55,907 nt of DNA from an uncultured Dehalococcoidia bacterium (GTDB lineage: Bacteria; Chloroflexota; Dehalococcoidia; UBA2247; RBG-13-53-26): the NCBI GenBank assembly GCA_964475375.1, contig CAYYWI010000006.1, positions 1 through 55,907 on the forward strand. The letters run 5' to 3'. The translations under genes were made by a program, and so were the position numbers. This document shows, piece by piece, positions 4,304 through 55,211 of the stretch. The notes beneath the pieces are model-generated. The model did no database searches, was not told the origin of the DNA, and was given only the letters and a program-made list of their open reading frames with translations. Every line of letters starts with the position of its first letter. Position 1 is the stretch's first letter.

Positions 4304-5566
4304 ATGGTCTATAATGGAGTGAATCGAGAGCCTGTGGAAGTGCGAGTGAATCCAAAGTTGAGAGACATTCATATCCAGCCAACCCTGCACCAGGGGCAGC
4401 AGGGATTTCTTCTGGCGGACCCTCTCGGCATCAGTGAAAGAGCACTATTTGTGCCCAACGTCCTGGCTCCCCTCCTTCCCCTCATGGACGGAAGTCGCGA
4501 TATAGGCACACTCAAAACCGGCTTTGAGCTCCGCACCGGCATTCCGATCAGCCTTGGTGTTTTGGAGAACCTCATCTCCGAAATGGATGCCTCCACATTT
4601 CTGGACAACAACCGCTATGCCGAGGCCTTGAAGCTTGCTACGGACAACTTCAGACAGGCAGCCTCCAGAATGCCTGTCATGGTGGGAAGGTCCTGCCCGG
4701 AAGACCCGATGGAACTCGCCTCGTTCCTTCAGGAATACCTGGATGGCATCGATGAGATGCCCGACCGGGCAGGTCAAATCACAGGCATGATCAGCCCGCA
4801 CATCGACTTCCCAAGAGGCGGTCCCGTCTACGGCGGGGTGTGGGCCGCAGCAGCACCGGCCATTAAGGAAGCCGAGCTTATCGTCATACTGGGCACCGAC
4901 CACAACGGCGGCAGCGGCGAGATCACGCTCACGCAGCAGAGCTATGAGACACCGTGGGGAGTCGTGAGTAGAATAGCCGGGATCACCGGAGAGGATGCCG
5001 TCTTCGGCGGTGAACTGCGCCATCGAGGCGAACACTCCGTTGAAGCCGCCTTGATATGGCTGCACTATCTGATGAGAGACAGGCCATGCCGGATAGTCCC
5101 CATCCTCTGCGGGTCATTCGAGCTGTTCATCCACCTGAACAACAGCCCATCACAAAGCAAGTCCGTATCGGCTGCCATCGAGGTTCTGCAGGAGACCTTC
5201 GGCAAGCGCCGCACTCTCATTGTTGCAGCCGCCGACCTGGCTCACGTCGGGCCTGCCTTCGGGGATCTCTTGCCCTTGAACCCTGCCGCATGCGCCAGGC
5301 TGGAAGCAAAGGACCGGCAGCTCATGAAGATCATGCGTTCGGCGGACGCCGGTGCCTTCTTCGAAGAGATCAGAAGTGAGGGAGATCAAAGGAAGATATG
5401 CGGGCTTCCGCCGATATACGTTGCCCTTTCGGTGCTCTCCGGCGCAAAGGGGTCTGTCACAGGCTATGCTCAGTGCCCCGCCAGCGAGGACGGCACTTCA
5501 GTCGTGTCCATCTGCGGGATGGTCTACCGCTCAGCACAGGACGGGACACACTCGCGGCCGGCTTAA
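4304..5566 (+). CDS. MEMO1 / AmmeMemoRadiSam system protein B family protein with ~110-aa N-terminal extension
   Basis: ISPHIDFPRGGPVYG, GTDH, AAADLAHVGP and ICGLPPI motifs are typical of the Memo-like family. Confidence 0.7.
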   Translation: MVYNGVNREPVEVRVNPKLRDIHIQPTLHQGQQGFLLADPLGISERALFVPNVLAPLLPLMDGSRDIGTLKTGFELRTGIPISLGVLENLISEMDASTFLDNNRYAEALKLATDNFRQAASRMPVMVGRSCPEDPMELASFLQEYLDGIDEMPDRAGQITGMISPHIDFPRGGPVYGGVWAAAAPAIKEAELIVILGTDHNGGSGEITLTQQSYETPWGVVSRIAGITGEDAVFGGELRHRGEHSVEAALIWLHYLMRDRPCRIVPILCGSFELFIHLNNSPSQSKSVSAAIEVLQETFGKRRTLIVAAADLAHVGPAFGDLLPLNPAACARLEAKDRQLMKIMRSADAGAFFEEIRSEGDQRKICGLPPIYVALSVLSGAKGSVTGYAQCPASEDGTSVVSICGMVYRSAQDGTHSRPA

Positions 5567-5573
5567 CGAGAAG

Positions 5574-5792
5574 CTACCTCGCCATCGCCTGCCGCAGCTT
5601 CTTCACCAAGGCAGCGCGGTCGGCATCGTTCGCCATCCGGAGCTTGAGGTTCTTCCAGGCGCCGGGGCAGTCCTTGTAGTCCACCCCTGCAACCTCATGA
5701 AGGACTCGGTCGACCTCTTTCCTGTTGGCAGGGGTAACCTCAATGCCGGCTTCAGCCATGACTTCCTTGAGATGACGGAAATAGCACGACAT
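5574..5792 (-). CDS. small hypothetical protein (72 aa)
   Basis: Compact ORF in a tight gap between neighbours, non-repetitive and charged (MSCYFRHLKEVMAEAGIEVTPANRKEVDRVLHEV...). No family recognised. Confidence 0.45.
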   Translation of the reverse strand: MSCYFRHLKEVMAEAGIEVTPANRKEVDRVLHEVAGVDYKDCPGAWKNLKLRMANDADRAALVKKLRQAMAR

Positions 5793-5818
5793 CGCCTGTT
5801 CCCTCCTTCAGCGAGCAT

Positions 5819-6547
5819 CTACTCAAATCCGTGCCAGGTCACCAGGTTCTCCATCGGCTCCCGGCTGGACTGGAAAGTGGCCGCCGGGTTCGAAAGGTCG
5901 GGGTATCCCATGGCTACACCCAGAATCATACGCTTCGTGTCCGGCAAATTCAGCAGGCTCCTCAAGACATCGGGGTATGCGACCGCCGCGCCCAAGGCAC
6001 AGGTCCCCACACCGTGGTGCCAGGCAGCCAGCATCAGGTTCTCCACGGCTATCCCTATGTCCACCAGCGACCACTGGCTGAGAGAAGCGTCAACATAGAC
6101 AACCACACCGTTGGGCGCATCGAAGAACTTCCTCATGGACATCCGCCAGCGTCGCATGGCATCACGATCACCCTTAGGCAATCCCAGTTCACGGACAAGC
6201 CGCCGCCCATCCAACTTGATGCGGTCCATGTAGGGTCCGGTGAACTTCGGCCAGGGAAGATCGAGCCGCGGCTTCTCTCCAGCCTGTCCCATAGCCGCCA
6301 GCGCTTCTTTCACGTTCTTCATCGCATCGCCGCCAAGCACGGCAAACTCCCATGGCTGCGTGTTCTCCCATGATGGAGCCCGGAGGGCCGCCTCCATTAT
6401 GGCTTGCAGAACCTCCCTGGGTATGGGGTCAGGCCTGAATGCCCGAATGCTTCTCCGACTGTGGATGGCCTCAATAACGTCCAACTTCTCCTCCCACGTC
6501 CGGCTGCCGCAGTCAGCAGCCTTCAACCCTTGTGGCAGTGGACTCAT
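5819..6547 (-). CDS. nitroreductase family protein
   Basis: RRSIRAFRPDPIPREVLQAIMEAALRAPSWENTQPWEF motif. The track ORF (to 6718) would overlap the upstream lipoprotein gene, so ATG 6547 (or TTG ~6486) is the more likely start. Confidence 0.8.
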   Translation of the reverse strand: MSPLPQGLKAADCGSRTWEEKLDVIEAIHSRRSIRAFRPDPIPREVLQAIMEAALRAPSWENTQPWEFAVLGGDAMKNVKEALAAMGQAGEKPRLDLPWPKFTGPYMDRIKLDGRRLVRELGLPKGDRDAMRRWRMSMRKFFDAPNGVVVYVDASLSQWSLVDIGIAVENLMLAAWHHGVGTCALGAAVAYPDVLRSLLNLPDTKRMILGVAMGYPDLSNPAATFQSSREPMENLVTWHGFE

Positions 6548-15289: not shown

Positions 15290-15775
15290 TTGAATCACCA
15301 CCCAGCGTCAAACAACCCTTTCGCTGAATGCCAAAGAGACGTCGCTATGTGCTATAATGAACCGCGGACGTGCACGGAGAGAACGGTGATAATCGAGTAT
15401 ACACACCCAGAGCTTGGCGAAGATATCCAGGGCCGGGCCGGGTACTACACCCCTATGGAGGAACTCACTCTGAAATACAAAGGGAGGGAGGTACTCTATG
15501 TGCTGGGCATGGCGCGTTTGGAGAGGCCATGCTGCGGTGCGGCAACCGGCTGGGGCTACATCCAGGTGCCGGGGTTTCTGGTGCGAAAGCACATACGCGG
15601 ACAGGGAAGCACGTCTGTATCACAGGTTGAGATAATTGAGAATGAAGATGACCGCACCCGGATCAGACAGGCGTTGATGGAGAAACACAAATGCACCCAA
15701 GTGGAGGTCTGGGGCAGTCAATATGCACAGGAGAGCAGCCCCCCGGCAAGTCCCAAGCTTGCGGGGCGATCATAG
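15290..15775 (+). CDS. hypothetical protein
   Basis: The open frame follows the HDAC-like gene. No motif recognised. Start uncertain (TTG 15290 or ATG 15347). The stop abuts the tRNA. Confidence 0.35.
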   Translation: MNHHPASNNPFAECQRDVAMCYNEPRTCTERTVIIEYTHPELGEDIQGRAGYYTPMEELTLKYKGREVLYVLGMARLERPCCGAATGWGYIQVPGFLVRKHIRGQGSTSVSQVEIIENEDDRTRIRQALMEKHKCTQVEVWGSQYAQESSPPASPKLAGRS

Positions 15776-15868
15776 GAGGGATCGCATAGTGGTCTAGTGC
15801 GGGCGCCTGCTAAGCGCTTACGGGGGCTCAAACCTCCGTCGTGGGTTCGAATCCCACTCCCTCCGCCA
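15775..15868 (+). tRNA. tRNA-Ser (anticodon GCU), CCA encoded
   Basis: Hand-folded cloverleaf. Acceptor stem GGAGGGA/TCCCTCC, anticodon stem GGCGC/GCGCT with loop CUGCUAA, long variable arm (cggggg-ctcaaa-cctccg) and T-arm GTGGG-TTCGAAT-CCCAC, followed by G-CCA. Confidence 0.85.
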
Positions 15869-15944: not shown

Positions 15945-17234
15945 ATGACCGGGAAGTCTATGAAGTGCTACCACATATGGACCATCGGCTGTCAGATGAA
16001 CAAGGCCGATTCCGACTTGGTGGCCGAATACCTGGAACGGGCGGGCCTCAGGCAGACGGAGATCGTTGAGGAAGCCGACTTCGTTCTGCTCAATAGCTGC
16101 GTGGTGAGAGAGCACGCCGAACTCAAAGTGGTCAACAAGCTCCAGTCACTTCGAGGCCTGAAGAAGAAGCGTCCCGGCGTTGTCATCGCCCTCACCGGCT
16201 GCATGGTCGATTCCCGAATCGATGACCTGGAGATACGGTTCCCCTGGGTGGATCTGTTCTTCCGTCCGCAGCAGTGGGATGTCCTCTCACAGTGGGCCGA
16301 GAGCCATCAACTGCCCGCTCTGCACCAGAGCGAACTGCTGGTTCCTCGGAATCCATCGCTGAGCGTCTACGTTCCTGTCATGCATGGATGCGACAGCTTC
16401 TGCTCCTACTGCGTTGTACCCTACCGGCGCGGCAGAGCCAGAAGCAGGGACCTGGAGGAAATTCGCTGCCAGGTAGAGAGTCTGGTTCAGCGCGGCACCA
16501 GGGAAGTCATTCTGCTTGGGCAGATTGTCGATGCATACGGAGAGGACCTGCCTTCCAAACCGGACTTGGCCGATCTGCTGGCCAGGTTGAACCGGATCGA
16601 TGGACTCCTCCGTATCCGTTTCCTGACCAGTCACCCCAGCCACATGAGCCGGAAGCTTATACAGGCCGTGGCCGATCTTGACAAGGTCTGCGAGCATTTC
16701 AGCTTGCCCATCCAGGCAGGCGATAACGAAATCCTCAAAGCCATGAGGCGGGGATACACATCGGAGGAGTATACCGATCTGATCGACCACATACGCCGTA
16801 CCATCCCGGACGTCGCCATCAGCACCGATGTGATCGTCGGCTTCCCGGGAGAAACGGACGAGCAGTTCGCCCGGACGATGAACGTGCTGCGCCACACCCG
16901 CTTCGACAAGGTGCACATAGCAGCCTACTCCCCCCGGCCGGACACTATCGCCGCCAGGAAGCTGGAAGATGATGTTCCAGATGAGAAGAAGGAATTCCGG
17001 CGCTCCCAGGCCGAAGCCCTCCAAAACACTATAGCCGCCGGGATCAACGCCACTTTCGTGGGGAAAACGGTGGAAATTCTGGTGGAGGGCGAAAAGAACG
17101 GCAAATGGTACGGGAGAACCAGGGGAGACAAGCTGGTCTTCTTCTCCTGCAAGGGCGACCCGGCAGGGCAGTTGGTGAAGGTTAAGATTGGGAAGGCCAG
17201 CCCATTCGCACTGCAGGGAGTGCCGGAAGGCTAG
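15945..17234 (+). CDS. miaB: tRNA-2-methylthio-N6-dimethylallyladenosine synthase
   Basis: YHIWTIGCQMN N-terminal UPF0004 cysteine motif, radical-SAM GCDSFCSYC and a C-terminal TRAM-like region. ATG 15960 is an alternative start. Confidence 0.9.
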   Translation: MTGKSMKCYHIWTIGCQMNKADSDLVAEYLERAGLRQTEIVEEADFVLLNSCVVREHAELKVVNKLQSLRGLKKKRPGVVIALTGCMVDSRIDDLEIRFPWVDLFFRPQQWDVLSQWAESHQLPALHQSELLVPRNPSLSVYVPVMHGCDSFCSYCVVPYRRGRARSRDLEEIRCQVESLVQRGTREVILLGQIVDAYGEDLPSKPDLADLLARLNRIDGLLRIRFLTSHPSHMSRKLIQAVADLDKVCEHFSLPIQAGDNEILKAMRRGYTSEEYTDLIDHIRRTIPDVAISTDVIVGFPGETDEQFARTMNVLRHTRFDKVHIAAYSPRPDTIAARKLEDDVPDEKKEFRRSQAEALQNTIAAGINATFVGKTVEILVEGEKNGKWYGRTRGDKLVFFSCKGDPAGQLVKVKIGKASPFALQGVPEG

Positions 17235-18031
17235 TTGTCTGCCGGGGGAACCATGTTCCGGTTCAGAATCTCCTTCCAGCAGTCGAACCACTTCGCTTTG
17301 ACATCATCCGGCCATTCGGCATTAAGACTGGGAAACTTTTCCATCAGTGCCATTGTCGTCTGGAGGGTTCGGTGATGCGCCAACCACTCGTCCCTGACCT
17401 CCTTGGGCCAGTTTGGATCGAACACCGGCAACTTGCTGGTCAGATGGCTGGGACCACCAGCTCCACCGGCATTTCTTCTGGATGACCTGCTCCTGGGTAC
17501 CACAGAAACTCTCCGGCTGACTCCTCCCGCCGCGGCTGCGGATGCCTCATGTCTCTGCGGGGCACCCACTCGGGACTTTGTCAGCAGGCTGGGCGACAAC
17601 GTCATGCCTGCGTCTTTGGCCAGCGCCAGGAAGAAAGTCACACACTTGTGGCCCACATTCCCCTCAGCACCAGCCCTCTTGAAACAGTCCTGAAGATGTC
17701 CCATGGTAGTATGCCCCAGGTCCACATCACCTACAACGGGGCCGTACGCCTCCTGGAGCACCTCCCTGATCACTACCTTCCGCGCATCCCCCTCGGCATT
17801 CACCATCTCCATCAGCTTATCTGTGGGTAAGCCATCCCCCTCGATCAAGCCTAAATACCACAGCGTAGCCTTCACCGTAACGCCGGTGCTGTCCGAAAGA
17901 CCCAAATCTCGAAAATAACTACCATCCAGGTGTGTCGGCTTCCGCTGCTTCACATCTTCCATGACCCGCGTCCAGGTGGCATAGGTCACATAAGGCGGTC
18001 GAGGACCCTTTTGTCTAGGCTTCATCACCAT
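17231..18031 (-). CDS. hypothetical protein (266 aa)
   Basis: Long ORF convergent with miaB, overlapping it by 4 nt. Structured N-domain, Ser/Arg/Ala-rich linker and a Trp-rich C-terminal region. No confident family. Confidence 0.5.
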   Translation of the reverse strand: MVMKPRQKGPRPPYVTYATWTRVMEDVKQRKPTHLDGSYFRDLGLSDSTGVTVKATLWYLGLIEGDGLPTDKLMEMVNAEGDARKVVIREVLQEAYGPVVGDVDLGHTTMGHLQDCFKRAGAEGNVGHKCVTFFLALAKDAGMTLSPSLLTKSRVGAPQRHEASAAAAGGVSRRVSVVPRSRSSRRNAGGAGGPSHLTSKLPVFDPNWPKEVRDEWLAHHRTLQTTMALMEKFPSLNAEWPDDVKAKWFDCWKEILNRNMVPPADN

Positions 18032-18229: not shown

Positions 18230-18259
18230 CTAAAACCTATTGACAAACATATTTCTATT
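18230..18259 (+). promoter_or_regulatory. sigma70-like promoter upstream of the FtsZ array
   Basis: TTGACA (18230-18235), 18-nt spacer, TAGAAT (18254-18259) in an AT-rich 285-bp divergent intergenic region. A second TATAAT lies at 18192-18197. Confidence 0.4.
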
Positions 18260-18316
18260 GTTCTAGAATCTTCAAGCAATCCCCGCACACGATCAGGCAG
18301 GTCATGTTCCGGGGGA

Positions 18317-19408
18317 ATGAGCTCAAAAGACCTGGAGAATAGAAGGAGGAGAGAAAAAGTGGAGCAAAGAGAGCAGAGAGTACCAGCCCCAATCAAGGTA
18401 ATCGGCGTAGGTGGCGGAGGGTGTAATGCTGTCAAGCGCATGCTCAAGAAACCGACCCCTGGTTGTCAGTACATTGTGTGCAACACAGACATCAAATCCC
18501 TGGACTCGGTTCCCGGTGACATCCTGTCAGTACAGATCGGCGAACACCTGACTCGCGGCTTCGGCGCAGGTGGAGACGCCAGAGTTGGCATGAGAGCTGC
18601 TGAGGAAGGCCGCTTTCTGTTGAAGAGAGCCCTCAAGGATGCGGAGTTGGTCTTCATCACCGCCGGCATGGGTGGCGGAACAGGCACTGGTGCTGCTCCC
18701 GTCGTGGCCAGCATAGCCAAGGAAAGCCGCGCGCTGGTTGTCGGCATTGTCACCACCCCGTTCTCATTTGAAGGAAAGAAGCGCTTTCAGCTGGCATTGG
18801 GCGGCATCCGCAGGCTGAGAGAAGAGGTCGACAACTTGATCATCATTCACAACGACCGCCTCCTTCAATATACTGACTCCCACACCCCGACGCAGCATGC
18901 CTTCGGCGTTGCCGACGAAGCAATTTCGGAAGGCATCATGGCTGTGTCCAATCTGGTCAACGTTCCCGGTGAGATAAACGTTGACCTGGCTGATGTCAAG
19001 ACCGTCATGGGCATCCCCGGTGGTGCACTGATGGCCATCGGCAAGGCAGACGCCAAGTCCCGCTACCCTGCCCAGGAAGCAGCAGAAATGGCCATCGCCA
19101 ATCCGCTGCTTGATATCGACGTAAAGGGCGCCAAGGGTGTTCTGTTCAACTTCAGCGGCGGCCCCGATCTGACCCTCGGCGAGGTCAACGACGCAGCCAA
19201 TCTCATCGCCAGGGAAGTGGACCCCACCGCCATCATGTTCTTCGGGATGTCTACGCCCAGCGAAGAAATGCGGAACGAAGTGAAGCTCACCCTTCTGGCC
19301 ACCGGCATAAATCCGCCGCTGCCGAGCAACTGGCTGTCAGAGCTCAAAGAGGACGTAAAGAGCTTCTTCGACAGCGGACGCAAGTCAGCGTCATCCCAGT
19401 GGAGGTAG
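18317..19408 (+). CDS. ftsZ: FtsZ-family tubulin-like GTPase, paralogue 1
   Basis: KVIGVGGGGCNAV, GMGGGTGTGAAPVVA, TTPFSFEG and the T7-loop NVDLADV are all intact. GTG 18359 (AGGAGG 9 nt upstream) is an alternative start. Confidence 0.9.
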   Translation: MSSKDLENRRRREKVEQREQRVPAPIKVIGVGGGGCNAVKRMLKKPTPGCQYIVCNTDIKSLDSVPGDILSVQIGEHLTRGFGAGGDARVGMRAAEEGRFLLKRALKDAELVFITAGMGGGTGTGAAPVVASIAKESRALVVGIVTTPFSFEGKKRFQLALGGIRRLREEVDNLIIIHNDRLLQYTDSHTPTQHAFGVADEAISEGIMAVSNLVNVPGEINVDLADVKTVMGIPGGALMAIGKADAKSRYPAQEAAEMAIANPLLDIDVKGAKGVLFNFSGGPDLTLGEVNDAANLIAREVDPTAIMFFGMSTPSEEMRNEVKLTLLATGINPPLPSNWLSELKEDVKSFFDSGRKSASSQWR

Positions 19409-19459
19409 AACAACAAAACACATAGTAGCCAGTGATCTGGCGAAAGGGGAGTGAGAAAG

Positions 19460-19657
19460 ATGTCAGTGTTGTTAGCCGGGCTGAATGTAGTGGCAGCATC
19501 TATACTGTTTTTCTCCATGTCCGGTATAACGAACTGGGTCATTTATGCATCGCCGCAAGCCAAGATATTCCCCTTCGTCCTTGGGCTGCTGCTCCTGTTC
19601 AATGCAGTATACCTTGGTACGAGCAGGGGAGAGGTCGGAGCACGTCACGGCGGGTGA
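19460..19657 (+). CDS. small two-TM hairpin membrane protein (family copy 1a)
   Basis: GGGGAG RBS. Sequence MSVLLAGLNVVAASILFFSMSGITNWVIYASPQAKIFPFVLGLLLLFNAVYLG... is very similar to the ORF at 22692. Confidence 0.6.
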   Translation: MSVLLAGLNVVAASILFFSMSGITNWVIYASPQAKIFPFVLGLLLLFNAVYLGTSRGEVGARHGG

Positions 19658-19711
19658 CATACGGCCTGATGCCTGCAGATGCATCAGGTACTACATGAAG
19701 GAGGCCTTCAT

Positions 19712-19906
19712 ATGGCGCGTTTGTTGAGTTTAGCCAACCTGACAGTCGGCGCGCTGCTCATGTTTGCGCTGTCAGACATAGCAAGTTGGACGTGGTTTGA
19801 GAATCAGCCGTCCAAGATCATAGTCTTCATCCTCAGCATGTTGCTGCTCGGAAATGGAATCAGCCTGGCCTTCAAAGAAGAGGGGACGGCGCTGCGCCGA
19901 GGGTAG
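19712..19906 (+). CDS. small two-TM hairpin membrane protein (family copy 1b)
   Basis: GAAGGAGG RBS before ATG 19712. MARLLSLANLTVGALLMFALSDIASWTWFENQPSKIIVFILSMLLLGNGISL has the same architecture as the other copies. Confidence 0.55.
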   Translation: MARLLSLANLTVGALLMFALSDIASWTWFENQPSKIIVFILSMLLLGNGISLAFKEEGTALRRG

Positions 19907-19966
19907 GCCGCTCTGGCTTCCCCAGGAAGGCGTGATTAGCAGCACCAAGTGGAGACAACTTATCGG

Positions 19967-19992
19967 GGGGAAGGAGCACGAGCTCCTTCCCC
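19967..19992 (+). promoter_or_regulatory. intercistronic GC-rich stem-loop (no U-tract)
   Basis: Perfect 11-bp stem ggggaaggagc / gctccttcccc with a 4-nt loop, between cassette 1 and FtsZ paralogue 2. Confidence 0.5.
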
Positions 19993-20040
19993 TCTAAGGA
20001 CCAACCAACACAATAGATAAATGAAAGGAGGGCGAGGGGA

Positions 20041-21171
20041 ATGATAGAACCCATGCGGGGCGGATACTATAGAGGATCCGACAGAGGTAAAGCTCCCGCC
20101 TTGATCAAAGTAATCGGCGTTGGTGGTGGCGGATGTAACACCGTTCGACGCATGATGCGCGCCCGTCAGATTCCGGGCGTGGAATATGCCGTAGCTAATA
20201 CTGATGTTAAATCCCTGGACCTTATTCAAGGAGCACTATCCCTGCAAATAGGTGAGCACCTGACTCACGGCTTCGGAGCCGGCGGGGACGCCAGAGTCGG
20301 CCAGAAAGCCGCAGAGGAAGGCGAGTTCCTGGTCAAGAGAGCCGTCAAAGATGCTGAGATGGTGTTCATTACAGTGGGTATGGGAGGAGGCACCGGCACC
20401 GGTGCTGCTCCGGTCGTAGCCCAAATAGCCAAGGAATCGGGTGCCTTGGTTATAGCCGTGGTAACCACCCCCTTCTCGTTCGAGGGCAAGAAGCGCTTTG
20501 AGGTTGCCACTTCAGGTCTCGACCGACTCAGAAACATGGTCGATAACATGATCATTATCCACAATGACAAGCTCCTTCAATATTCGGAGCACAACGCCAG
20601 CATAAGTCAGGCTTTTGCTATGGCTGACGATGTGGTCTGCGAAGGTATCATGAGCGTCTCTTCACTGGTCAACGTCCCCGGCGAGATCAACGTGGACATG
20701 GCCGACGTTAAGAACGTCATGCGCATCCCGGGGGTCACCATCATGGCCATCGGTCAGGGTGCGGGTCAGCATCCAGCCATGGATGCAGCCGAGCAAGCCA
20801 TGAACAACCCTCTGATAGACGTAACCATGAAGGGTGCAAAGGGTCTGCTCATCAGCTTCTCCGGCGGTCCCGATCTGACCCTCGGTGAGGTCAACGAGGC
20901 AGCCACACTGATCAGCCGGGAGTGCGACCCCAACTGCATGTTCAAGTTCGGCCTGGCCACACTCAGCGAGGAGCTCAGGAGCAAGTCCAAGGTCACCCTG
21001 ATAGCGACGGGCATACGGTCCACCAATCCGCTCTATGCCACAACCGGCACATCGAGCTATTCTTCATCATCAGCACCGTCACCGGCACAATCAGCCGCAT
21101 CAACCGCCAGCAGATGGCTGTCGGGTCTGGGGAAGAGGCTCGGCGACTCCAGTGGCAATCGCAGGTTCTAG
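20041..21171 (+). CDS. ftsZ: FtsZ-family tubulin-like GTPase, paralogue 2
   Basis: KVIGVGGGGCNTV, GMGGGTGTGAAPVVA, TTPFSFEG and NVDMADV. AAAGGAGG RBS. Ser/Ala-rich C-terminal linker. Confidence 0.9.
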   Translation: MIEPMRGGYYRGSDRGKAPALIKVIGVGGGGCNTVRRMMRARQIPGVEYAVANTDVKSLDLIQGALSLQIGEHLTHGFGAGGDARVGQKAAEEGEFLVKRAVKDAEMVFITVGMGGGTGTGAAPVVAQIAKESGALVIAVVTTPFSFEGKKRFEVATSGLDRLRNMVDNMIIIHNDKLLQYSEHNASISQAFAMADDVVCEGIMSVSSLVNVPGEINVDMADVKNVMRIPGVTIMAIGQGAGQHPAMDAAEQAMNNPLIDVTMKGAKGLLISFSGGPDLTLGEVNEAATLISRECDPNCMFKFGLATLSEELRSKSKVTLIATGIRSTNPLYATTGTSSYSSSSAPSPAQSAASTASRWLSGLGKRLGDSSGNRRF

Positions 21172-21215
21172 GCGGACCCAACGAATCTAAGAGGAATCAA
21201 AAGGAGGTAGTCACA

Positions 21216-21434
21216 ATGACGCGAGTGCTAGGCTGGATCAACGTCGTGGCTGGCTTCTGCTTGCTGGTCTTGATCCTTTCAGGCGTCTTCAGTCGCCTGC
21301 TTACAAACATAGCAGACTGGAACAGCTTCAATACCCTTGCTGCCAAGATAGTTGTCTCGATAGCCGGGGTCCTGGCTATTCTCAGCTCCGTCTATCTGGT
21401 TGTCGGTCAAGTCCGAGAGCACAGCAAGAGCTAA
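21216..21434 (+). CDS. small two-TM hairpin membrane protein (family copy 2)
   Basis: AAAGGAGG RBS 7 nt before ATG 21216. MTRVLGWINVVAGFCLLVLILSGVF...AAKIVVSIAGVLAILSSVYLV. In the track it appears only as the tail of a longer out-of-context ORF (20922..21434). Confidence 0.6.
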   Translation: MTRVLGWINVVAGFCLLVLILSGVFSRLLTNIADWNSFNTLAAKIVVSIAGVLAILSSVYLVVGQVREHSKS

Positions 21435-21450
21435 CCTTCGTTCAACAGCG

Positions 21451-21483
21451 CAGGAGTTGGCTTGATACTCAAGCCAACTCCTG
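21451..21483 (+). promoter_or_regulatory. intercistronic perfect 15-bp stem-loop (no U-tract)
   Basis: caggagttggcttga-tac-tcaagccaactcctg between cassette 2 and FtsZ paralogue 3. It covers the TTG (21462) that the ORF track used as a start. Confidence 0.6.
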
Positions 21484-21509
21484 GAAACCTGAGAAAAGGA
21501 GAGGTCAGA

Positions 21510-22634
21510 ATGTTAGAGGGGACATTCAAACCAAAATCGAGAGATGATGCCGGCAGCCGGATAATTGCCCACATCAAGGTAATAGGGGTAGGCGGAGGCG
21601 GCTGCAACACCGTAAGGCGCATGATGCAGCACTGCGATATCGGAGGGCTCGAATACATCGTAGTGAACACCGATGTCAAATCTCTCGAATTGATTTCTCG
21701 CGGCTATTCAATACAGATCGGCTCGCACTTCACCCAGGGATTCGGTGCCGGAGGAGATCCTAAAGTAGGTGAAATGGCTGCCCGGGAAAACAGGATGGCG
21801 CTCCAGAAGGCATGCAGAGGAGCTGACCTTATATTCATTACTGCCGGAATGGGTGGCGGCACCGGAACCGGCTCTGCGCCGGTGGTCGCCGACATCGCCA
21901 AGGAAACCGGTGCGCTGGTTATTGCCGTCGTCACTACACCATTCACATTTGAAGGCCCGCGCAGAGCGGATGTGGCTTTCAATGGTCTGAAGACCCTCAT
22001 GGACAAGGTAAACAGCACCATTATTGTTCCCAACGACCACCTGCTCCGCCTCGGCGACCACGATGTGCCGATATCGAAGGCATTCGCCGCCGCCGACGCA
22101 GTTGTGTCCGAGGGCATCATATCTATATCCGAGCTCATCAACATCCCCGGCGAGATAAATGTCGACTTGGCCGACGTCAAGAGGGTCATGGGTATACCGG
22201 GTATATCCCTCATGGCTACAGGTCGGGGAGAAGGCCCCAACGGTGCAGAGCGAGCTGCTGAAGAAGTCATTTTTGAGCCCCTGCTGGAAACACATGTCAA
22301 CGGTGCCAAAGGAGTGCTCTTCTGCTTCTCCGGCGGCCCGGACCTGACTCTAGGCTCAGTGGAAAAGGCAGCCAGTCTCATCTCAAAGCACGTCGACCCG
22401 CATGCCATGATCTTCTTCGGCATGAACCTACCCAAGCCGGAGATGACCGGAAAGGTCAAGATAAACCTGGTGGCAACAGGCATAGATCCCGTTGCAGGCA
22501 GCACGTGGTTCGCACGACTGAAGCAAGCTTCAAAGGTACCGACAACCCAGCCTCAATCTCAGTCCCAACCACAATCTCAGCCGGGCAAACTGACCAGGCT
22601 GAGCATGGCATACGCTACCAAGCTGTTCCAATAG
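21510..22634 (+). CDS. ftsZ: FtsZ-family tubulin-like GTPase, paralogue 3
   Basis: KVIGVGGGGCNTV, GMGGGTGTGSAPVVA, TTPFTFEG and NVDLADV. AAGGAGAGG RBS before ATG 21510. PQSQSQPQSQP linker. Confidence 0.9.
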   Translation: MLEGTFKPKSRDDAGSRIIAHIKVIGVGGGGCNTVRRMMQHCDIGGLEYIVVNTDVKSLELISRGYSIQIGSHFTQGFGAGGDPKVGEMAARENRMALQKACRGADLIFITAGMGGGTGTGSAPVVADIAKETGALVIAVVTTPFTFEGPRRADVAFNGLKTLMDKVNSTIIVPNDHLLRLGDHDVPISKAFAAADAVVSEGIISISELINIPGEINVDLADVKRVMGIPGISLMATGRGEGPNGAERAAEEVIFEPLLETHVNGAKGVLFCFSGGPDLTLGSVEKAASLISKHVDPHAMIFFGMNLPKPEMTGKVKINLVATGIDPVAGSTWFARLKQASKVPTTQPQSQSQPQSQPGKLTRLSMAYATKLFQ

Positions 22635-22691
22635 AGTCGCGCTTGAGAGACAGCAGATAGATATTAAGTAAGAGAAAAGGGAGGAAAGAAG

Positions 22692-22886
22692 ATGCCACAG
22701 CTACTATCATGGATGAATATGATGGCAGGTTTGATACTCTTCTTCTCAATGTCAGGGATAAGCAACTGGCTGATATTCACTTCATCTGAGGCCAAGATAT
22801 TCCCCTTCATACTGGGTATACTCCTCCTCTCCAATGCAGTCTACCTGGCACTGGCAAGAGGGGAATTCTGGGCTCGCCGCAGCTAG
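22692..22886 (+). CDS. small two-TM hairpin membrane protein (family copy 3)
   Basis: AGGGAGG RBS. MPQLLSWMNMMAGLILFFSMSGISNWLIFTSSEAKIFPFILGILLLSNAVYLA is close to copy 1a. Confidence 0.65.
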   Translation: MPQLLSWMNMMAGLILFFSMSGISNWLIFTSSEAKIFPFILGILLLSNAVYLALARGEFWARRS

Positions 22887-23014: not shown

Positions 23015-23104
23015 ATGCTGAGCAGGACTGATGTGATGGTATGGGGAATGGTGATGGTAGTGATGTGCATGATAGCAATCGAAATTGTGAGGACTCAACT
23101 CTAG
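23015..23104 (+). CDS. possible 29-aa single-TM micropeptide
   Basis: GGGAGGAG RBS 4 nt before ATG. MLSRTDVMVWGMVMVVMCMIAIEIVRTQL. Very short, so low confidence. Confidence 0.2.
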   Translation: MLSRTDVMVWGMVMVVMCMIAIEIVRTQL

Positions 23105-23421
23105 TCCGGAATTCGCTGGAGATCGGGAAAAACAACGCCGTCGGGCTTCTAGTTCGGCATCGTTATTTTTCCAGGTGGGCGAGAAAATCTATGATAGCAA
23201 GAACACCAGACGGCGAGACTCTGAAAGCGACTGGGGCTGATGAGCAAGAAGTAACCTGGGCTCGCAGAACCAGAAAGATATGCGGATCGCCAATGAATCC
23301 AACGATATCACAAGTCAATTGCTATGCGGCAATCCGACGCTGGATGTATTGCCGCAGTTCAGAATCAAGGGCAACCTCGTTAGGCCCGACTACGGGATGT
23401 GCGTTGAGGCGGAGGTGACAC

Positions 23422-23640
23422 ATGAAACAGAAGATAACCGTCAATAAAATACTAAAAAGAACCAGAAGCCCGCTTAGAAGAGGGATAATAGCCGTCGGCG
23501 TGGCTTTGATAGTGTTCCCGGAGCCCATCACCACAGCGGTCGGCACAGCAATGGTAGGCATCTCTCTGGCTGTTCCCGAACCGCGCAGCATGGCCTTGGT
23601 CTATTCCGGTGCAACTGTTAGGAAAGGCCGGGTTGGGTAA
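23422..23640 (+). CDS. small membrane protein (72 aa)
   Basis: GGAGGTG RBS 5 nt before ATG. Basic N-terminus followed by two hydrophobic stretches (GIIAVGVALIVFPEPITTAVGTAMVGISLAV). Confidence 0.4.
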   Translation: MKQKITVNKILKRTRSPLRRGIIAVGVALIVFPEPITTAVGTAMVGISLAVPEPRSMALVYSGATVRKGRVG

Positions 23641-23885
23641 CGATAGCACTGTGTAGTCAGGCAGAGACACTTAGAGGTTTGAGATAAGTGATCAAAGAGT
23701 GCATCAGCAAGCAGGCTAGGAGCAAGGTTGTGCCCCCCCACCCTTGCTTGGCAGCCTCTCCTCATGGCCACAAATGCCAAATTCCACGGCGTCTTCAGGC
23801 CTTATAACAGCTAGACTATCTGCACTAGCCTGCTTGCTGGTCACATACCACCCACAGAAATGGCCATCCTGTGGCAGTGGAGCTA

Positions 23886-24803
23886 CTAAGCAGAATCAAA
23901 AAGCCTTTTCTGTACCTCGCCCAGACGATCCAGCCCTTTTATCTCATAGGCAAACATGGGTACCCTGGTAGAACCCATCCCCTGCATACCCTCGACCTCA
24001 GCAAGATACTTCTGCTGCAATTCCGCCTTCTTACGAAGAAAGGGGGAGTCCGCCTCTTCAACCACCTGGTTGATGATTATATGGTTTATGCTCAGACCGT
24101 AACTCCGGAACTCTCCGAGGATATCTTGAAGCTGGTGTACAGCCAGAGCTTCAGGTATAGTAACCAGGTTGAACTGCACCTGCTCCTTGAGAAATGCCAT
24201 GTCCTTGTTGGACAGCTGCTCCCAATCCTTAATCACCCCCAGAACCGACCGCTTCAGATTCTGTGTTGACTTAAGTGAGGAGTAGATCTTGACAGCCGGT
24301 TTCAGGTGGCGGTTCATCATAGACGGCATGCGCAGTAGGCCGAGGGTCTGCCCCGCTGGCGCCGTGTCCCACACAATTCTGTCGAACTCCTGGGACTCGC
24401 TGAGTTCGCGGATGTAGTCCACCATAAACTCATCTTTTATCCCCGGCAACATAGTGGCCACATAGCGAACGAACTCCTGGTATTCAATCTCCACGAAAGT
24501 CGAGAACACGTCATATACCTGGGAACCGAACTTGCGATCCCACAGAATCTTGACATTGTCATAGCTGATCTCGTCCAGGTAGAGGTTGTCAGTCACCTTT
24601 GCCGGCTTGTCAGATGAGTCAACCTCAAAGATGTCCCTGAGGGAAGGCGTGAAGTCAGTCGATATGATGAGGGTCTTCCTGCCATTGCCGGCATGATGAA
24701 GAGCAGTAGCAGCGGCCGACGTTGTCTTGCCGACCCCACCCTTGCCGCAAAACATCATTACTTTCTTAGAGCCGAGCTCAGAAATGCCTGCAACTGCGCA
24801 CAT
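23886..24803 (-). CDS. ArsA/GET3-family P-loop ATPase (single domain)
   Basis: Deviant Walker A CGKGGVGKTT, then ISTD and WDTAPAGQTLGLL (DTAPTGHT-like switch). Confidence 0.8.
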   Translation of the reverse strand: MCAVAGISELGSKKVMMFCGKGGVGKTTSAAATALHHAGNGRKTLIISTDFTPSLRDIFEVDSSDKPAKVTDNLYLDEISYDNVKILWDRKFGSQVYDVFSTFVEIEYQEFVRYVATMLPGIKDEFMVDYIRELSESQEFDRIVWDTAPAGQTLGLLRMPSMMNRHLKPAVKIYSSLKSTQNLKRSVLGVIKDWEQLSNKDMAFLKEQVQFNLVTIPEALAVHQLQDILGEFRSYGLSINHIIINQVVEEADSPFLRKKAELQQKYLAEVEGMQGMGSTRVPMFAYEIKGLDRLGEVQKRLFDSA

Positions 24804-44020: not shown

Positions 44021-44510
44021 AAAAGAGCTTCAGCCGCTGCAAATATACAGGTTGCTGCCGCGCACCAACTGCAAGAAATGCGGCTCGGCCACCTGTTACG
44101 CTTTCGCTTTTGACCTCATAAGCCGGGGTAAGAAGCCCGAGGGTTGCCCGCCGCTGCTGACAGAGGAATTCGGCGAGTCGTACCTGATGCTCAAGGAGAT
44201 GCTGGGCGAAGGCGAGCTCATCAAGGGAACCGAGCACGTCCTGGACAAGTCACGGTGCACCGGCTGCGGCGACTGCGTCACCGTATGCAACAGAGCACTG
44301 ACTACCATCACAAAGGGAGGCCGCTTCTCACAGCGAGCATCCGTGCCGCCGCCGCTGAAGATTGTGGACGGCAACCTTCAGGTCATACAGTGGTCGAGCT
44401 GCAAACGAGCCACTCCGGGTCTGGACATCTGCAACCTCTGCGCTGAGAAGTGCCCCTTCAGCGCGATAGACCTGGTCAAGCCTGAAGAAGAAGAGACGGA
44501 AGAAGACTAG
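44013..44510 (+). CDS. Fe-S protein: AcsC/RnfB-N-terminal-type [4Fe-4S] domain plus ferredoxin-like Cys motifs
   Basis: LLPRTNCKKCGSATCYAFA matches the Fe-S motif of the corrinoid Fe-S protein large subunit and RnfB N-termini. CTGCGDCVTVC and CNLCAEKCP motifs lie downstream. TTG start. Confidence 0.7.
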   Translation: MPKKELQPLQIYRLLPRTNCKKCGSATCYAFAFDLISRGKKPEGCPPLLTEEFGESYLMLKEMLGEGELIKGTEHVLDKSRCTGCGDCVTVCNRALTTITKGGRFSQRASVPPPLKIVDGNLQVIQWSSCKRATPGLDICNLCAEKCPFSAIDLVKPEEEETEED

Positions 44511-46990
44511 TCGCTCTTCTTCTGCTTCTTAACGCTGTTCGGCAACAACCTCTGCAGATGGCAATGGTACCGGCCGAGCTCCATGCCATAGCTGGTGTTG
44601 AACTCTGAGAGAGTCAACAGCTTGCCATCGCGGTTCCGGGCCTTGGTGACCTTCAGCATGTCGCCTTCCCAGCCATGCTCATCCCGCAGTATCTTGAGCA
44701 GCTTGATGCGGTGCCTGGTCGGTATGTCCAGGTGAGACCGGATCAACAGATGCCAGTCCTCAGGCAGCTCATTGTAGAAGATTCGGTAGAGCTCCAGGTA
44801 GAAGTCCATGCGCGCCGCCCGGCCTTCCCTCATCTCCGAGGTGCTGAAGAACATGCGCGGAATCATAGTGAGGGCCTCTTCCTTGGTCTCCACCGGAACC
44901 AGCAGATGCTCCGGAATAGGCTCGGTCTCTCTCTTCTTCCCATCGTCTCCGTGGTACACAAACCACTTGCTGCGGTCGTACCTGTCCCCAACCATGTATC
45001 GGCCCCAGGTCAGTCCGGAAGCAGGCCCCACCACCACCCTGATCCCCAGCCGGGCATACGCTGCAGCCACAGCATACATCCGGTCGGGCAAACCGCCCCA
45101 CAGCAGCAGTGAGAACGTGGTGTACAGCGATCCCTCACCGACCTCCGGTATTCCACCATACAGTGGGATACCGCCTGCCGCACGCGAGTACATGTACATG
45201 TTGTTGGCCAACGAGATAGCCGCGCAGCCGCCGCAGTTGATCAGCGATCGCGGCTCGATGGACGCCAGGTAAGGCTCGAAAACATACTTGCCCTTGCTGT
45301 CGATGTAGTGTCTGGCCAACTCAGACGCACCGCATCCCGCCGTGAAGACGATGCAGTTCCTTCTGGTCAGCTCATATGCCAGCCAGCCGATCTCTTCGCG
45401 AGGTGCATCGCCGCAGCCCGCTATGATCACGATACCCGGAGCATTGCCCCAGACCATGGAGAAGGCCGACTGCAGTATCTCGGTGAGCGGCAGCGGTCCT
45501 CTGCCCGGCCTCATAACGAACTTGTCCTTGGCCGCTTGCTTTCTCTCAGCAGCAACGATGATGTCGCGCACTTGTATCTTGGACGGGCAGGCAGCTTCAC
45601 ACTTGCCGCAGAAGAAGCAGCCCTTCTCAACCTCAAAGAACGTCTCCCACTTGCCGGCGCTGAGGGACTTCAACGCCTTGGAAACCGGCAGGTCGTTCGG
45701 ACAGGCCATAGAGCAGAGGTCGCAATTGGCCTGGCACTTCTTCGTCTCGGCCACGGCGGCATCGTCACTCATGACATGTGCGGTCCGCTTCACCGTCTGA
45801 GCCACTTTGACCGCCACCTCAGCGGCCTTCTCAGCATCTCTGATCCAGGCGGCCTTCCCGCCGCCAACCAAGTCACCAACTATCTTGTCAACCGCCACGT
45901 CCGTGCTGTCGGCAACGCCGGAAACGCCGTTCGATCCCACCCAGATAAACTTGCTGTCCACTCGGGCAGCCTCGGACGCCAGATCCAGCGGCATGCACGA
46001 AGCGCTGGCCACAACCACATCGAATACACCGTTCCTGATGGCCTTGCCCGCACGCACCATAGGCGCTATGATATGGCCCTTATCATAGAAACGGACAATG
46101 TCATCGCCGGCAGGCCCGATTCCGCAGATCTCCACCTTGTCCAGAGACCCGGCCTTCTTCAGCAAATCAACGGCGCACCACGCCGGCAGGAAATCATCGC
46201 CGGCAAAGGCGATAACCGGCTTGCCCGCCTGTATTGATGCAAAACCTCCGGTCACCTTGGCTGGAGGGAAATTCTCCAGTTCGTCGATCTTCTGCTTCGC
46301 CGCAGAGATGAAGCCGAAACAGGACACCTTGAGCATCTCAGCAACGCCCATAGCCAGCAAAAGGATCGAACCGGCGTGCATCGTCATGCTCTCAAAGCCG
46401 GCCGCATCGCCTGTCCCCGAGAAGCTGGCGGACACGAGCTTGCCCAGTTGCACCTCACCATAGGAGAGAGCCCGATTGAGCTGCTTGAGCGTCTTCACCG
46501 GTATGCCGCTCACCAGACCCACGGGAGGGCAGGAATCAGACATGGTCAGGAGATCGCCCATGCTGACCGGCGTGTCCTCGCTGTGCAGCTTCAACGCGTA
46601 GTTCATCAGGCTTCGCGTGGCGACCATCTGGCTTGCGCAGCCGCGGCAAGCCTTTCTCAGACTCAACCGGCCCTGATATGCGTCGAAGCTCAGTCCGCAA
46701 TTCCCATTGCCTTCTTTCAGGTTGCACGGCCCCAGGCCACAATCGGTGCAGACTCCTTGAGGGCTGGCGTACAGCGGCTCGTATCTCTCCAGCAGAGCGC
46801 GATCCCAGTCTTCCAGATCAGCCGACTCCGGCATTATGTTCAGAGAGGCACCGAATTGCGCGTAGCGGCTCTCAACAAAGTCCTTCTCCAGAATCTCCTT
46901 GACTATGTCCTCGATACCGCGTGGATCACGCACCACTTGTCTTATGTCAACCTTATGCGGTCCAACATGTGCAATCCACTTATCTTCCAC
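44507..46990 (-). CDS. cdhA: archaeal-type CO dehydrogenase/acetyl-CoA synthase alpha subunit (CdhA), copy 1
   Basis: 827 aa. N-terminal Cys cluster (CTDCGLGPC...CGLSF...CRGC) and an inserted 2x[4Fe-4S] ferredoxin module (CQANCDLCSMACP, CFFCGKCEAACP) typical of CdhA rather than CooS. GTG start with GAGGAG RBS. Confidence 0.85.
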   Translation of the reverse strand: MEDKWIAHVGPHKVDIRQVVRDPRGIEDIVKEILEKDFVESRYAQFGASLNIMPESADLEDWDRALLERYEPLYASPQGVCTDCGLGPCNLKEGNGNCGLSFDAYQGRLSLRKACRGCASQMVATRSLMNYALKLHSEDTPVSMGDLLTMSDSCPPVGLVSGIPVKTLKQLNRALSYGEVQLGKLVSASFSGTGDAAGFESMTMHAGSILLLAMGVAEMLKVSCFGFISAAKQKIDELENFPPAKVTGGFASIQAGKPVIAFAGDDFLPAWCAVDLLKKAGSLDKVEICGIGPAGDDIVRFYDKGHIIAPMVRAGKAIRNGVFDVVVASASCMPLDLASEAARVDSKFIWVGSNGVSGVADSTDVAVDKIVGDLVGGGKAAWIRDAEKAAEVAVKVAQTVKRTAHVMSDDAAVAETKKCQANCDLCSMACPNDLPVSKALKSLSAGKWETFFEVEKGCFFCGKCEAACPSKIQVRDIIVAAERKQAAKDKFVMRPGRGPLPLTEILQSAFSMVWGNAPGIVIIAGCGDAPREEIGWLAYELTRRNCIVFTAGCGASELARHYIDSKGKYVFEPYLASIEPRSLINCGGCAAISLANNMYMYSRAAGGIPLYGGIPEVGEGSLYTTFSLLLWGGLPDRMYAVAAAYARLGIRVVVGPASGLTWGRYMVGDRYDRSKWFVYHGDDGKKRETEPIPEHLLVPVETKEEALTMIPRMFFSTSEMREGRAARMDFYLELYRIFYNELPEDWHLLIRSHLDIPTRHRIKLLKILRDEHGWEGDMLKVTKARNRDGKLLTLSEFNTSYGMELGRYHCHLQRLLPNSVKKQKKSD

Positions 46991-47036
46991 TGTTCATCTC
47001 CTCAAACGATCAGATTGTGGCAAGGGCCTGTTCAGG

Positions 47037-47258
47037 CTATCCGAGAAACTCTTTTTCCTTGAAGCACTTCTCACAGACCTTGATCTTCTGTGAAGCCGAC
47101 TTCATGGGGCTGGTGATCCGGCCCATCATCCTCTGGCCGGGCCTGGTCGAGTCGATCCTCACCTCGCGAACGCACTCGTCACAAAGAGCAACACCGCACT
47201 CCTTGCATGTCTCCTGAGCTTCCTTTTTCTGACATACGCCGCACAGATTCTCTGACAT
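47037..47258 (-). CDS. 8-Cys zinc-ribbon/B-box-like small protein (73 aa), copy 1
   Basis: GGGGGA RBS. Four CxxC pairs: CGVC, CKEC, CDEC and CEKC. A paralogue occupies the same position in the second module. Confidence 0.6.
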   Translation of the reverse strand: MSENLCGVCQKKEAQETCKECGVALCDECVREVRIDSTRPGQRMMGRITSPMKSASQKIKVCEKCFKEKEFLG

Positions 47259-47279
47259 GTCTATCCCCCAATCTACCGC

Positions 47280-54828: not shown

Positions 54829-54976
54829 AGCTTTCTCCTCCAGAATTTTCGGTTACTCGGGCCAACCAGCTTGCTTCAGACGAGACAAAGGTTCCAGCGT
54901 CTCACGACGCCGGAACCTTCCGCAATCTCAACCGGAACCCGCACGGTCCGCAGCCTGCTGCCAGCCCATAGTGCAG

Positions 54977-55192
54977 CTAGTCAACGAAATCCACTTCCTT
55001 CATGCACTTTTCGCAAACCTTCTGCTTCTTCATACCCGACTTCAAAGGGCTGGTCAGTACGCCCAGCACTCTCTGTCCCGGGTTCTCTATGGCTACCTCT
55101 TTCAAACACTCAGCGCAGAGAGGAACGCCGCAAACGCTGCACTTCTCTTCCGCCGGCTTCTTCTTGCATACACCACATAACTTCTCTGTCAT
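54977..55192 (-). CDS. 8-Cys zinc-ribbon/B-box-like small protein (71 aa), copy 2
   Basis: GGAGGTGG RBS. CGVC, CSVC, CAEC and CEKC pairs at the same spacing as copy 1. Confidence 0.6.
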   Translation of the reverse strand: MTEKLCGVCKKKPAEEKCSVCGVPLCAECLKEVAIENPGQRVLGVLTSPLKSGMKKQKVCEKCMKEVDFVD

Positions 55193-55211
55193 GATCCACC
55201 TCCGGTGTTGT

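Follow-up and report, generated by a model that had tools for sequence, protein, structure and literature searches.

A tandem array of three FtsZ paralogs interleaved with predicted two-helix membrane proteins in uncultured Dehalococcoidia

Analysis of a 55,907-nt stretch of DNA from an uncultured Dehalococcoidia bacterium (GenBank assembly GCA_964475375.1, contig CAYYWI010000006.1, positions 1 to 55,907; this whole ~56-kb stretch is called the window) revealed a tandem array of three ftsZ genes at positions 18317-22886, in which each ftsZ is followed by one or two genes for small proteins predicted to cross the membrane twice. All of these genes lie on the plus strand. The ftsZ genes encode FtsZ-1 (Z1, 18317..19408, 363 aa), FtsZ-2 (Z2, 20041..21171, 376 aa) and FtsZ-3 (Z3, 21510..22634, 374 aa), each assigned from its Pfam domains, its score against the TIGR00065 model and its position in a tree. 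The interleaved genes encode two-transmembrane (TM) hairpin proteins, here termed S, which fall into three subfamilies, A, B and C: S-A1 (S1a, 19460..19657, 65 aa, subfamily A) and S-B (S1b, 19712..19906, 64 aa, subfamily B) follow Z1, S-C (S2, 21216..21434, 72 aa, subfamily C) follows Z2, and S-A3 (S3, 22692..22886, 64 aa, subfamily A), which has a conserved cytoplasmic tail, GEFWARR, follows Z3. For the S genes we used ATG starts located behind GGAGG-type Shine-Dalgarno sites, the better-supported choice, and a strong Shine-Dalgarno site precedes every gene of the array. The original prediction, made from the sequence alone, had described three intact same-strand FtsZ open reading frames (ORFs), each followed shortly by a ~65-aa ORF with a strong ribosome binding site and two hydrophobic helices. 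Both descriptions held: domains, model scores and the quoted motifs are all present in the FtsZ copies, and the small ORFs are homologous to one another and encode 64-72 aa, the first of them after each ftsZ gene beginning 42-57 nt downstream.

Each of the three FtsZ proteins contains the Pfam Tubulin (PF00091; E-values of 1e-41 to 1e-42) and FtsZ_C (PF12327) domains, the two profiles that had been suggested as a check on their identity, and each exceeds the 295.2-bit cut-off of the TIGR00065 ftsZ equivalog model, with scores of 353 bits for Z1, 343 bits for Z2 and 340 bits for Z3. Alignment showed that GVGGGGCN, GMGGGTGTG, TTPF(S/T)FEG and INVD(L/M)ADV are kept in all three, with the G-box GMGGGTGTG and the T7 loop INVD(L/M)ADV invariant across them, and the best PDB match was Bacillus subtilis FtsZ (2vam, 1e-87). 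The paralogs share 53-60% pairwise protein identity. When compared with their orthologs in related genomes, the FtsZ genes showed ratios of nonsynonymous to synonymous substitution (dN/dS) of 0.06-0.13, the Z1 comparison between the window and L003 being excluded; all three copies are under strong purifying selection.

A genome scan that sampled one genome per GTDB species recovered the array from 13 species-level metagenome-assembled genomes (MAGs) of Chloroflexota/Dehalococcoidia, loci L001-L013, in which the Z1 ortholog is 67-92% identical, and the suggested search of related genomes for the same cassette synteny found it in these MAGs and in metagenome contigs. As far as each contig reaches, tblastn placed the genes of these loci in a shared order: MiaB, a DUF5343 protein (minus strand), Z1, S, S, Z2, S, Z3, S and a Get3/ArsA-type ATPase (minus strand), with rpoB also kept beyond the ATPase gene in several. 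The canonical architecture can be written as Z1-A-B-Z2-C-Z3-A(-B), with the DUF5343 gene divergent upstream. Independent ENA and Logan assemblies contain the array as well, among them long-read contigs; the largest contig spans 1.84 Mb (ERZ25039480:contig_30969), and the small ORFs in these contigs were called independently by gene callers; a further set of loci, L081-L087, includes metagenome contigs and distant arrays. Even the best-conserved stretches of DNA are only 64-76% identical between the three ftsZ copies, and this divergence, which had been put forward earlier as an argument against an assembly artifact, together with recurrence in independent assemblies rules out an artifact or collapsed repeat. 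Because 13 genomes, each representing a species, and several metagenome contigs share it, the array is neither a chance arrangement nor an artifact.

The pairing of FtsZ and S genes has exceptions within this set, since the S gene after Z1 is missing from L011 and the one after Z3 from L012, while L010 has a single S gene in all. In L010 the Z1 frame (4732-5988) runs past the usual stop and overlaps the next hairpin gene, probably reflecting a frameshift or sequencing error in the MAG. More distant Dehalococcoidia (L014-L019) have a single-copy FtsZ, 53-59% identical, that is not followed by a hairpin ORF. For example, the complete 3.2-Mb chromosome of L014 carries a DUF5343 gene upstream of its single FtsZ, the only FtsZ locus that the scan, which was not exhaustive, returned from this chromosome.

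The origin of the triplet was examined in a neighbor-joining tree of FtsZ (330 columns, 100 bootstraps) with outgroups from Saccharibacteria, Actinobacteria, Myxococcota and gammaproteobacteria. The three orthogroups were recovered with bootstrap values of 100 (Z1), 100 (Z2) and 92 (Z3); Z1 and Z2 grouped together at 83 and the triplet was monophyletic at 76, giving the topology ((Z1,Z2),Z3). The array triplet was sister to the single-copy Dehalococcoidia FtsZ, and all Dehalococcoidia FtsZs clustered (bootstrap 80) separately from the outgroups. These groupings indicate that Z1, Z2 and Z3 are lineage-specific in-paralogs of the lineage's own bacterial FtsZ, produced by a tandem triplication that would have preceded the split of L012 from the rest. 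In addition, the presence of the single L014 FtsZ at the same DUF5343-adjacent locus suggests that the array descends from the primary ftsZ. Since the tree was built from bacterial sequences, without archaeal FtsZ or CetZ, the bacterial assignment rests on the bacterial neighbors in the tree, the TIGR00065 scores and the PDB match.

CetZ proteins lack the Pfam FtsZ_C domain. An origin from archaeal FtsZ1/FtsZ2 or from CetZ was ruled out by the presence of FtsZ_C in all three proteins, by their placement in a clade with Dehalococcoidia FtsZ and by their passing the TIGR00065 cut-off. Membership in the FtsZ-like/Tubulin_2 family (FtsZl-1 and others, PMC2875224) was likewise ruled out, with PF13809 giving only a sub-threshold match, in Z3 alone (16.5 bits compared to a cut-off of 27).

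The four S proteins of the window are mutually homologous (30-61% identity), and members of the family share a length of ~62-73 aa, two TM helices, conserved residues N9, G13, W26 and F29 and a tail at the C-terminus that is basic, and their genes adjoin ftsZ. An AlphaFold2 model of S3, built from a 35-sequence alignment, contains helices at residues 2-23 and 32-63 with a mean predicted local distance difference test (pLDDT) score of 78.6. Across the family, lysine and arginine residues number 3.4 at the termini compared to 1.1 in the loop. The two hydrophobic helices, the modeled hairpin and this charge bias all point to membrane insertion of the S proteins, with a predicted topology in which both the N- and C-termini are cytoplasmic. 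The dN/dS values of the S genes, at synonymous divergences (dS) of ~0.8-2, were 0.13-0.23 for S-A1, 0.08-0.17 for S-B, 0.11-0.14 for S-C and 0.12 for S-A3, indicating that these are selected coding genes. Clustering resolved the subfamilies by position, with A members downstream of Z1 and Z3, B members downstream of A, and C members, which have a 9-residue insertion in TM1, downstream of Z2. The S tree is incongruent with the Z tree, since A-type members follow both Z1 and Z3 yet Z1 is closest to Z2, and this mismatch means that the pattern is not mere block duplication.

Database searches yielded few S relatives. A profile search of 5.8 billion proteins returned 132 clusters, all annotated as hypothetical, with the few organism-named ones from Chloroflexi or Dehalococcoidia, and an exhaustive HMMER search of 1.84 billion representatives at 50% identity returned only 15 S matches. 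Even the three weakest matches (P0131-P0133, E-values of 3e-5 to 2e-4) are each encoded between or after tandem FtsZ genes, with a DUF5343 gene upstream in two of the three, and S genes were found inside an FtsZ array in all 22 S-containing loci examined, the window, L001-L013 and L081-L087 among them. Thus, the anticipated conservation of the small ORFs beside FtsZ paralogs in relatives extends across all 22 loci. The S proteins and two small ORFs downstream of the array, a micro-ORF and the gene for a membrane protein termed T (both described below), had no significant Pfam match, the best being Yip1 at an E-value of 0.007, under its cut-off. S2, S3 and T had no NCBIfam match; PADLOC gave nothing for S1b, S2 and S3 and only a negligible match for T; and the S family profile had no match in the PDB. 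Known families considered for S, namely FtsA, EzrA, CrgA (PF06781), YggT/YlmG (PF02325), ZipA, SepF and defense or phage proteins, were ruled out for lack of matches, with none for CrgA or YGGT even at E<=1. By these searches S appears as an orphan family that, among the members located, occurs only within FtsZ arrays.

The C-terminal tails of the array FtsZs are also unusual. Alignment showed that none has the canonical C-terminal peptide (of the D-I/L-P-x-F-L/V-R type) that binds FtsA, ZipA and SepF, which the Thermoleophilia outgroup L020 does carry (EYDIPSFVRQ). In its place each array FtsZ has a short amphipathic helix containing tryptophan or leucine, within a tail that is conserved within each orthogroup. 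The Z1 tail, NPPLPS-NWLSELKEDVKSFF-SGRK, has almost no linker ahead of the helix NWLSELKEDVK; the Z2 tail has a linker of ~30 aa rich in serine, threonine and alanine, followed by RWLSGLGKRLG...NRRF; and the Z3 tail comprises STWFARLKQASK, with the helix TWFARLKQASK, a glutamine-rich linker and a second conserved motif, KLTRLSMAYATKLFQ. The hydrophobic moments of the best 11-mers range from 0.42, the value for the window Z3 helix, to 0.67 for RWLSGLGKRLG, and most are near the 95th percentile (0.61) of the 11-mers of Z1 itself. For the membrane-targeting helix of Escherichia coli FtsA, the moment is 0.78. The Z2 and Z3 helices each have a net charge of +3, whereas the Z1 helix is net acidic and looks more like a protein-binding element; the cationic helices look more like membrane-binding ones. 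The second Z3 motif (KLTRLSM.Y) is present in 10 of the 10 loci with an S gene after Z3 and is degenerate in the two loci lacking one (L010 and L012), a suggestive co-occurrence.

Analysis of the large ORFs of the window with Pfam revealed no FtsA, SepF, ZapA, Min or Mur domains, as the original prediction had stated for the surroundings of the array, and no division and cell wall (dcw) or ftsA-ftsZ context, with FtsA, FtsQ, Mur, MraZ/W and SepF absent from these ORFs; dcw-type domains were likewise absent from the 10-kb flanks on either side of those related loci that have listed called genes. The neighbors named earlier, miaB, a hypothetical gene, an ArsA-like gene and rpoBC, were recovered as MiaB, a DUF5343 protein on the minus strand in place of the hypothetical gene, a Get3/ArsA-type ATPase on the minus strand, and rpoB/rpoC. 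Other large ORFs of the window include carbon monoxide dehydrogenase/acetyl-CoA synthase (CODH/ACS) genes, a two-component system and a ClpB-like ATPase, among others.

Consensus scans for transcription signals identified a σ70-like promoter candidate, TTGACA-18-TAGAAT (18240..18269, plus strand), 48 nt 5′ of Z1, a divergent 12/12 promoter-like match (18096-18068, minus strand) facing the DUF5343 gene, and a terminator-like hairpin with a T-run (23140..23158, plus strand); no plus-strand terminator-like site was found by these scans before the latter position. The three FtsZ genes and the S genes are probably co-transcribed as one operon. Just before the terminator-like hairpin lies a micro-ORF (23015..23104, plus strand) with a strong Shine-Dalgarno site, encoding a 29-aa protein with a single TM helix (MLSRTDVMVWGMVMVVMCMIAIEIVRTQL); this gene probably closes the operon. 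In loci that reach downstream, tblastn found the micro-ORF in the syntenic position, in L001-L013 and L081-84, with 48-79% amino acid identity, and a 30-aa gene was called at this position in L081. Farther downstream, the T gene (23422..23640, plus strand) encodes a membrane protein of 72 aa that carries an LPEPxTT motif, ends in an SSGVIVRRG-like sequence and is conserved at 33-53% amino acid identity among array loci. This gene directly follows the last FtsZ in L010, L012 and L087, and the comparisons point to T as a second orphan family tied to the arrays.

The DUF5343 gene (17231..18031, minus strand; Pfam PF17278, E-value of 9e-6) diverges from Z1 and encodes a 266-aa protein in which a disordered basic linker separates the DUF5343 domain, at the N-terminus, from a conserved helical hairpin with tryptophan-rich motifs, at the C-terminus. 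It lies upstream of the array in L085 and L086 as well as in L001-L013. Its AlphaFold2 model has a mean pLDDT of 83.6, and a Foldseek search of the PDB with this model found nothing below an E-value of 0.39, with only faint winged-helix-like resemblances. A weak PADLOC match to the defense candidate PDC-M34A (E-value of 3e-5) was found, and no mention of DUF5343 was found in the literature searched. Since its distant homologs occur in mobile- or defense-like contexts and not beside ftsZ, DUF5343 is a neighbor kept at the level of the lineage and not a proven part of the system.

A candidate new structured RNA of ~150 nt (23695-23850, plus strand) lies in the interval that separates the T gene from the 3′ end of the Get3/ArsA gene. 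Its nucleotides are near-invariant across L001, L002, L003, L005 and L011, making it more conserved than the flanking genes, and a covariance model found syntenic copies in 13 loci, with plus-strand E-values of 1e-9 to 1e-47. A closing stem of ~17-20 bp shows compensatory changes in five pairs, and three invariant G-U pairs fit the plus strand only. The element has no Rfam match even at E<=10. The Get3/TRC40/ArsA-family ATPase gene (23886-24803, minus strand; TIGR00345, 173 bits) is convergent to the array and, among loci whose contigs reach it, is conserved only in the core clade, whose gene order is kept overall in any case. Eukaryotic and archaeal relatives of Get3 insert tail-anchored membrane proteins. 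A link between this ATPase and insertion of the small membrane proteins is speculation to which we give no weight. Elsewhere in the window are a tRNA gene just upstream of miaB (15775-15865, plus strand; Rfam RF00005, 56 bits) and, on the minus strand, two CODH/ACS-type gene sets (Prismane/CODH and ACS beta subunit; 44507-48650 and 52330-55871) with a LuxR-type two-component system between them. These gene sets are consistent with anaerobic, Wood-Ljungdahl-type metabolism.

We tentatively favor, with somewhat less than even confidence, the reading that the S hairpins are dedicated FtsZ tethers or organizers in a lineage-specific division module of this uncultured Dehalococcoidia clade. According to this proposal, the three FtsZs would make up the division ring, co-polymerizing or each building its own layer of filaments, and the S hairpins would be their dedicated integral-membrane partners. 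The FtsZ C-terminal helices, which are membrane-proximal, would dock on the interfacial C-terminal tails of S, and this contact would tether or organize the filaments on the membrane, replacing FtsA, SepF or ZipA. The geometry of the FtsZ tails, with almost no linker in Z1, ~30 aa in Z2 and two motifs in Z3, may set a paralog-specific distance and partner. The original prediction of a dedicated, paralog-specific partner is partly supported: position-specific S subfamilies, restriction of the family to FtsZ arrays and purifying selection agree with it, but the pairing is not strictly one to one, as the exceptions in L010, L011 and L012 show. Dehalococcoides mccartyi is without peptidoglycan, and Dehalococcoidales and SAR202 have lost dcw cell-wall genes (PMC10608941). 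A more far-reaching form of the proposal, in which a wall-less lineage divides by a self-contained machine without FtsA or SepF, with three cooperating FtsZs each tethered by its own S subfamily and the micro-protein and T as further parts of a natural minimal divisome, seems to us doubtful.

Several observations weigh against S hairpins acting as tethers. On the cytoplasmic side each would offer very little to dock on, only ~3 residues at the N-terminus and ~10 at the C-terminus. Arrays carry anywhere from 1 to 5 S genes, and the Z1 tail of L011 is intact even though no S gene follows it. No more than one or two evolutionary events may lie behind the co-occurrence of the second Z3 motif with an S gene downstream of Z3. 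The array was seen in a 56-kb window, a canonical ftsA-ftsZ pair may lie elsewhere in the genome, and Dehalococcoidales and SAR202 are reported to keep an mraZ-mraW-ftsA-ftsZ cluster (PMC10608941). Finally, short helices similar to those of the array FtsZs (LSKAISxKGG, LHRLGEAVKK and others) are found in the S-less, single-copy relatives L014 and L016-L019 and in distant arrays, indicating that the tail helix predates S, does not depend on it and could bind the membrane directly.

This last observation underlies an alternative in which the FtsZs anchor themselves through their C-terminal amphipathic helices and S, perhaps with the micro-protein and T, regulates or organizes the ring, as inhibitors, spacers, or curvature or lipid-domain factors, in the manner of small membrane division regulators. 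The cationic, amphipathic character of the Z2 and Z3 helices, the position of the helix immediately after the globular domain in Z1 and Z3, and the variable S copy number all agree with it, and there are precedents: FtsZ of Mycoplasma genitalium, which has no canonical peptide, binds liposomes via a C-terminal amphipathic helix (bioRxiv 10.1101/2023.08.29.555414), and OdinFtsZ1 and chloroplast FtsZ1 bind the membrane directly (PMC12583498). The acidic Z1 helix, however, is atypical of a membrane-targeting sequence, the hydrophobic moments reach only about the 95th percentile of the protein's own background, and self-anchoring alone leaves unexplained an orphan membrane family exclusive to FtsZ arrays, with position-specific subfamilies. 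We consider this account unlikely but a serious rival; it is compatible with tethering by S, and the two are not mutually exclusive.

Two further possibilities would remove the array from division or uncouple S from FtsZ. If division were carried out by an ftsA-linked ftsZ elsewhere in the genome, the array could be an accessory cytoskeleton for shape, membrane remodeling or a specialized structure, comparable to CetZ or the magnetosome FtsZm. The mraZ-mraW-ftsA-ftsZ cluster reported for the related groups, which is missing from the window, would provide such an ftsZ, the array FtsZs are without the FtsA-binding peptide, and, as described for Agrobacterium, other bacteria with multiple FtsZs divide with one homolog only (bioRxiv 10.1101/412759). 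In contrast, all three copies score as ftsZ equivalogs and have dN/dS values of the kind that essential genes typically show, their branches fall within the Dehalococcoidia clade beside single-copy FtsZs at the same DUF5343-linked locus, and the non-exhaustive scan returned a single FtsZ locus from the L014 chromosome; we consider an accessory role rather improbable. Least probable, to the point that we would be surprised by it, is that S has an unrelated membrane role and that its genes hitchhiked with ftsZ during segmental duplication. Although duplication of a tandem [Z-S] unit would itself yield a repeated pattern, and synteny within a single clade is weak evidence alone, this account is at odds with the incongruence of the S and Z trees, with a linkage that survives saturated synonymous divergence (dS of 0.8-2) and persists in very distant arrays with other gene orders, and with the failure to find any S member away from FtsZ.

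Comparison with known systems suggested both parallels and differences. Like ZipA, S is proposed to be an integral membrane protein that holds FtsZ via the FtsZ C-terminus; ZipA, however, is bitopic with a large cytoplasmic FtsZ-binding domain, whereas S is a hairpin with ~10 cytoplasmic residues and no ZipA match in Pfam or NCBIfam. Other very small membrane proteins join the divisome or regulate it, among them CrgA of Actinobacteria, YlmG/YggT of Firmicutes, cyanobacteria and plastids, and SidA and DidA of Caulobacter; CrgA and YlmG have two TM helices, and YlmG is encoded near ftsZ/sepF. Unlike S, these proteins are not known to be interleaved one per FtsZ, and they co-exist with FtsA or SepF. 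The array FtsZs resemble the M. genitalium type in the absence of the canonical peptide, in an amphipathic helix beside the globular domain and possibly in a wall-less background, but Mycoplasma carries just one ftsZ, as a rule within an mraZ-mraW-ftsA-ftsZ remnant, and is not known to have dedicated small membrane genes.

Paralog-specific anchoring has a precedent in archaea, where SepF serves FtsZ2 and CdpC serves FtsZ1 (bioRxiv 10.64898/2026.07.16.738847). This pair and chloroplast FtsZ1/FtsZ2 with the integral-membrane tethers ARC6 and PARC6 share with the array the retention of FtsZ paralogs for one ring, which here we infer, and different routes of membrane attachment (PMC12583498; bioRxiv 10.64898/2026.07.16.738847; PMC5471200). 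In contrast to those pairs, the array consists of three recent, lineage-specific bacterial in-paralogs in tandem in one probable operon, and its candidate partners, whose role is inferred, are 64-72-aa hairpins with no similarity to SepF in Pfam. Agrobacterium (FtsZAT, FtsZ1 and FtsZ3) and Magnetospirillum (FtsZm) also have more than one FtsZ homolog per genome, but the extra copies there are dispersed and in many cases truncated or short of domains, and division requires only one homolog (bioRxiv 10.1101/412759), whereas the three copies here are full-length, tandem, equally conserved and adjoined by membrane-protein genes. Full-text literature searches turned up no paper that describes S proteins or three tandem FtsZs in Chloroflexota, and the earlier view that the arrangement is undescribed in bacteria stands as far as these searches reach.

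In sum, the array belongs to a known kind of system, FtsZ rings with lineage-specific membrane attachment and subfunctionalized paralogs, and it is the components and the architecture that are new. How an FtsZ ring is attached and constricts in cells without FtsA, SepF, ZipA or a wall is poorly understood and is central to the evolution of division and to minimal synthetic cells. The components of the array are small and either soluble or easily reconstituted, making them testable on liposomes even though the hosts are uncultured. If the S proteins are indeed FtsZ tethers, they would form a new protein family and no smaller Z-ring anchor would be known. The FtsZ triplet, with its equally conserved tandem copies, would be the bacterial equivalent of the division of labor between archaeal and plastid FtsZ1 and FtsZ2, one that arose independently and recently enough for its steps to be traced.

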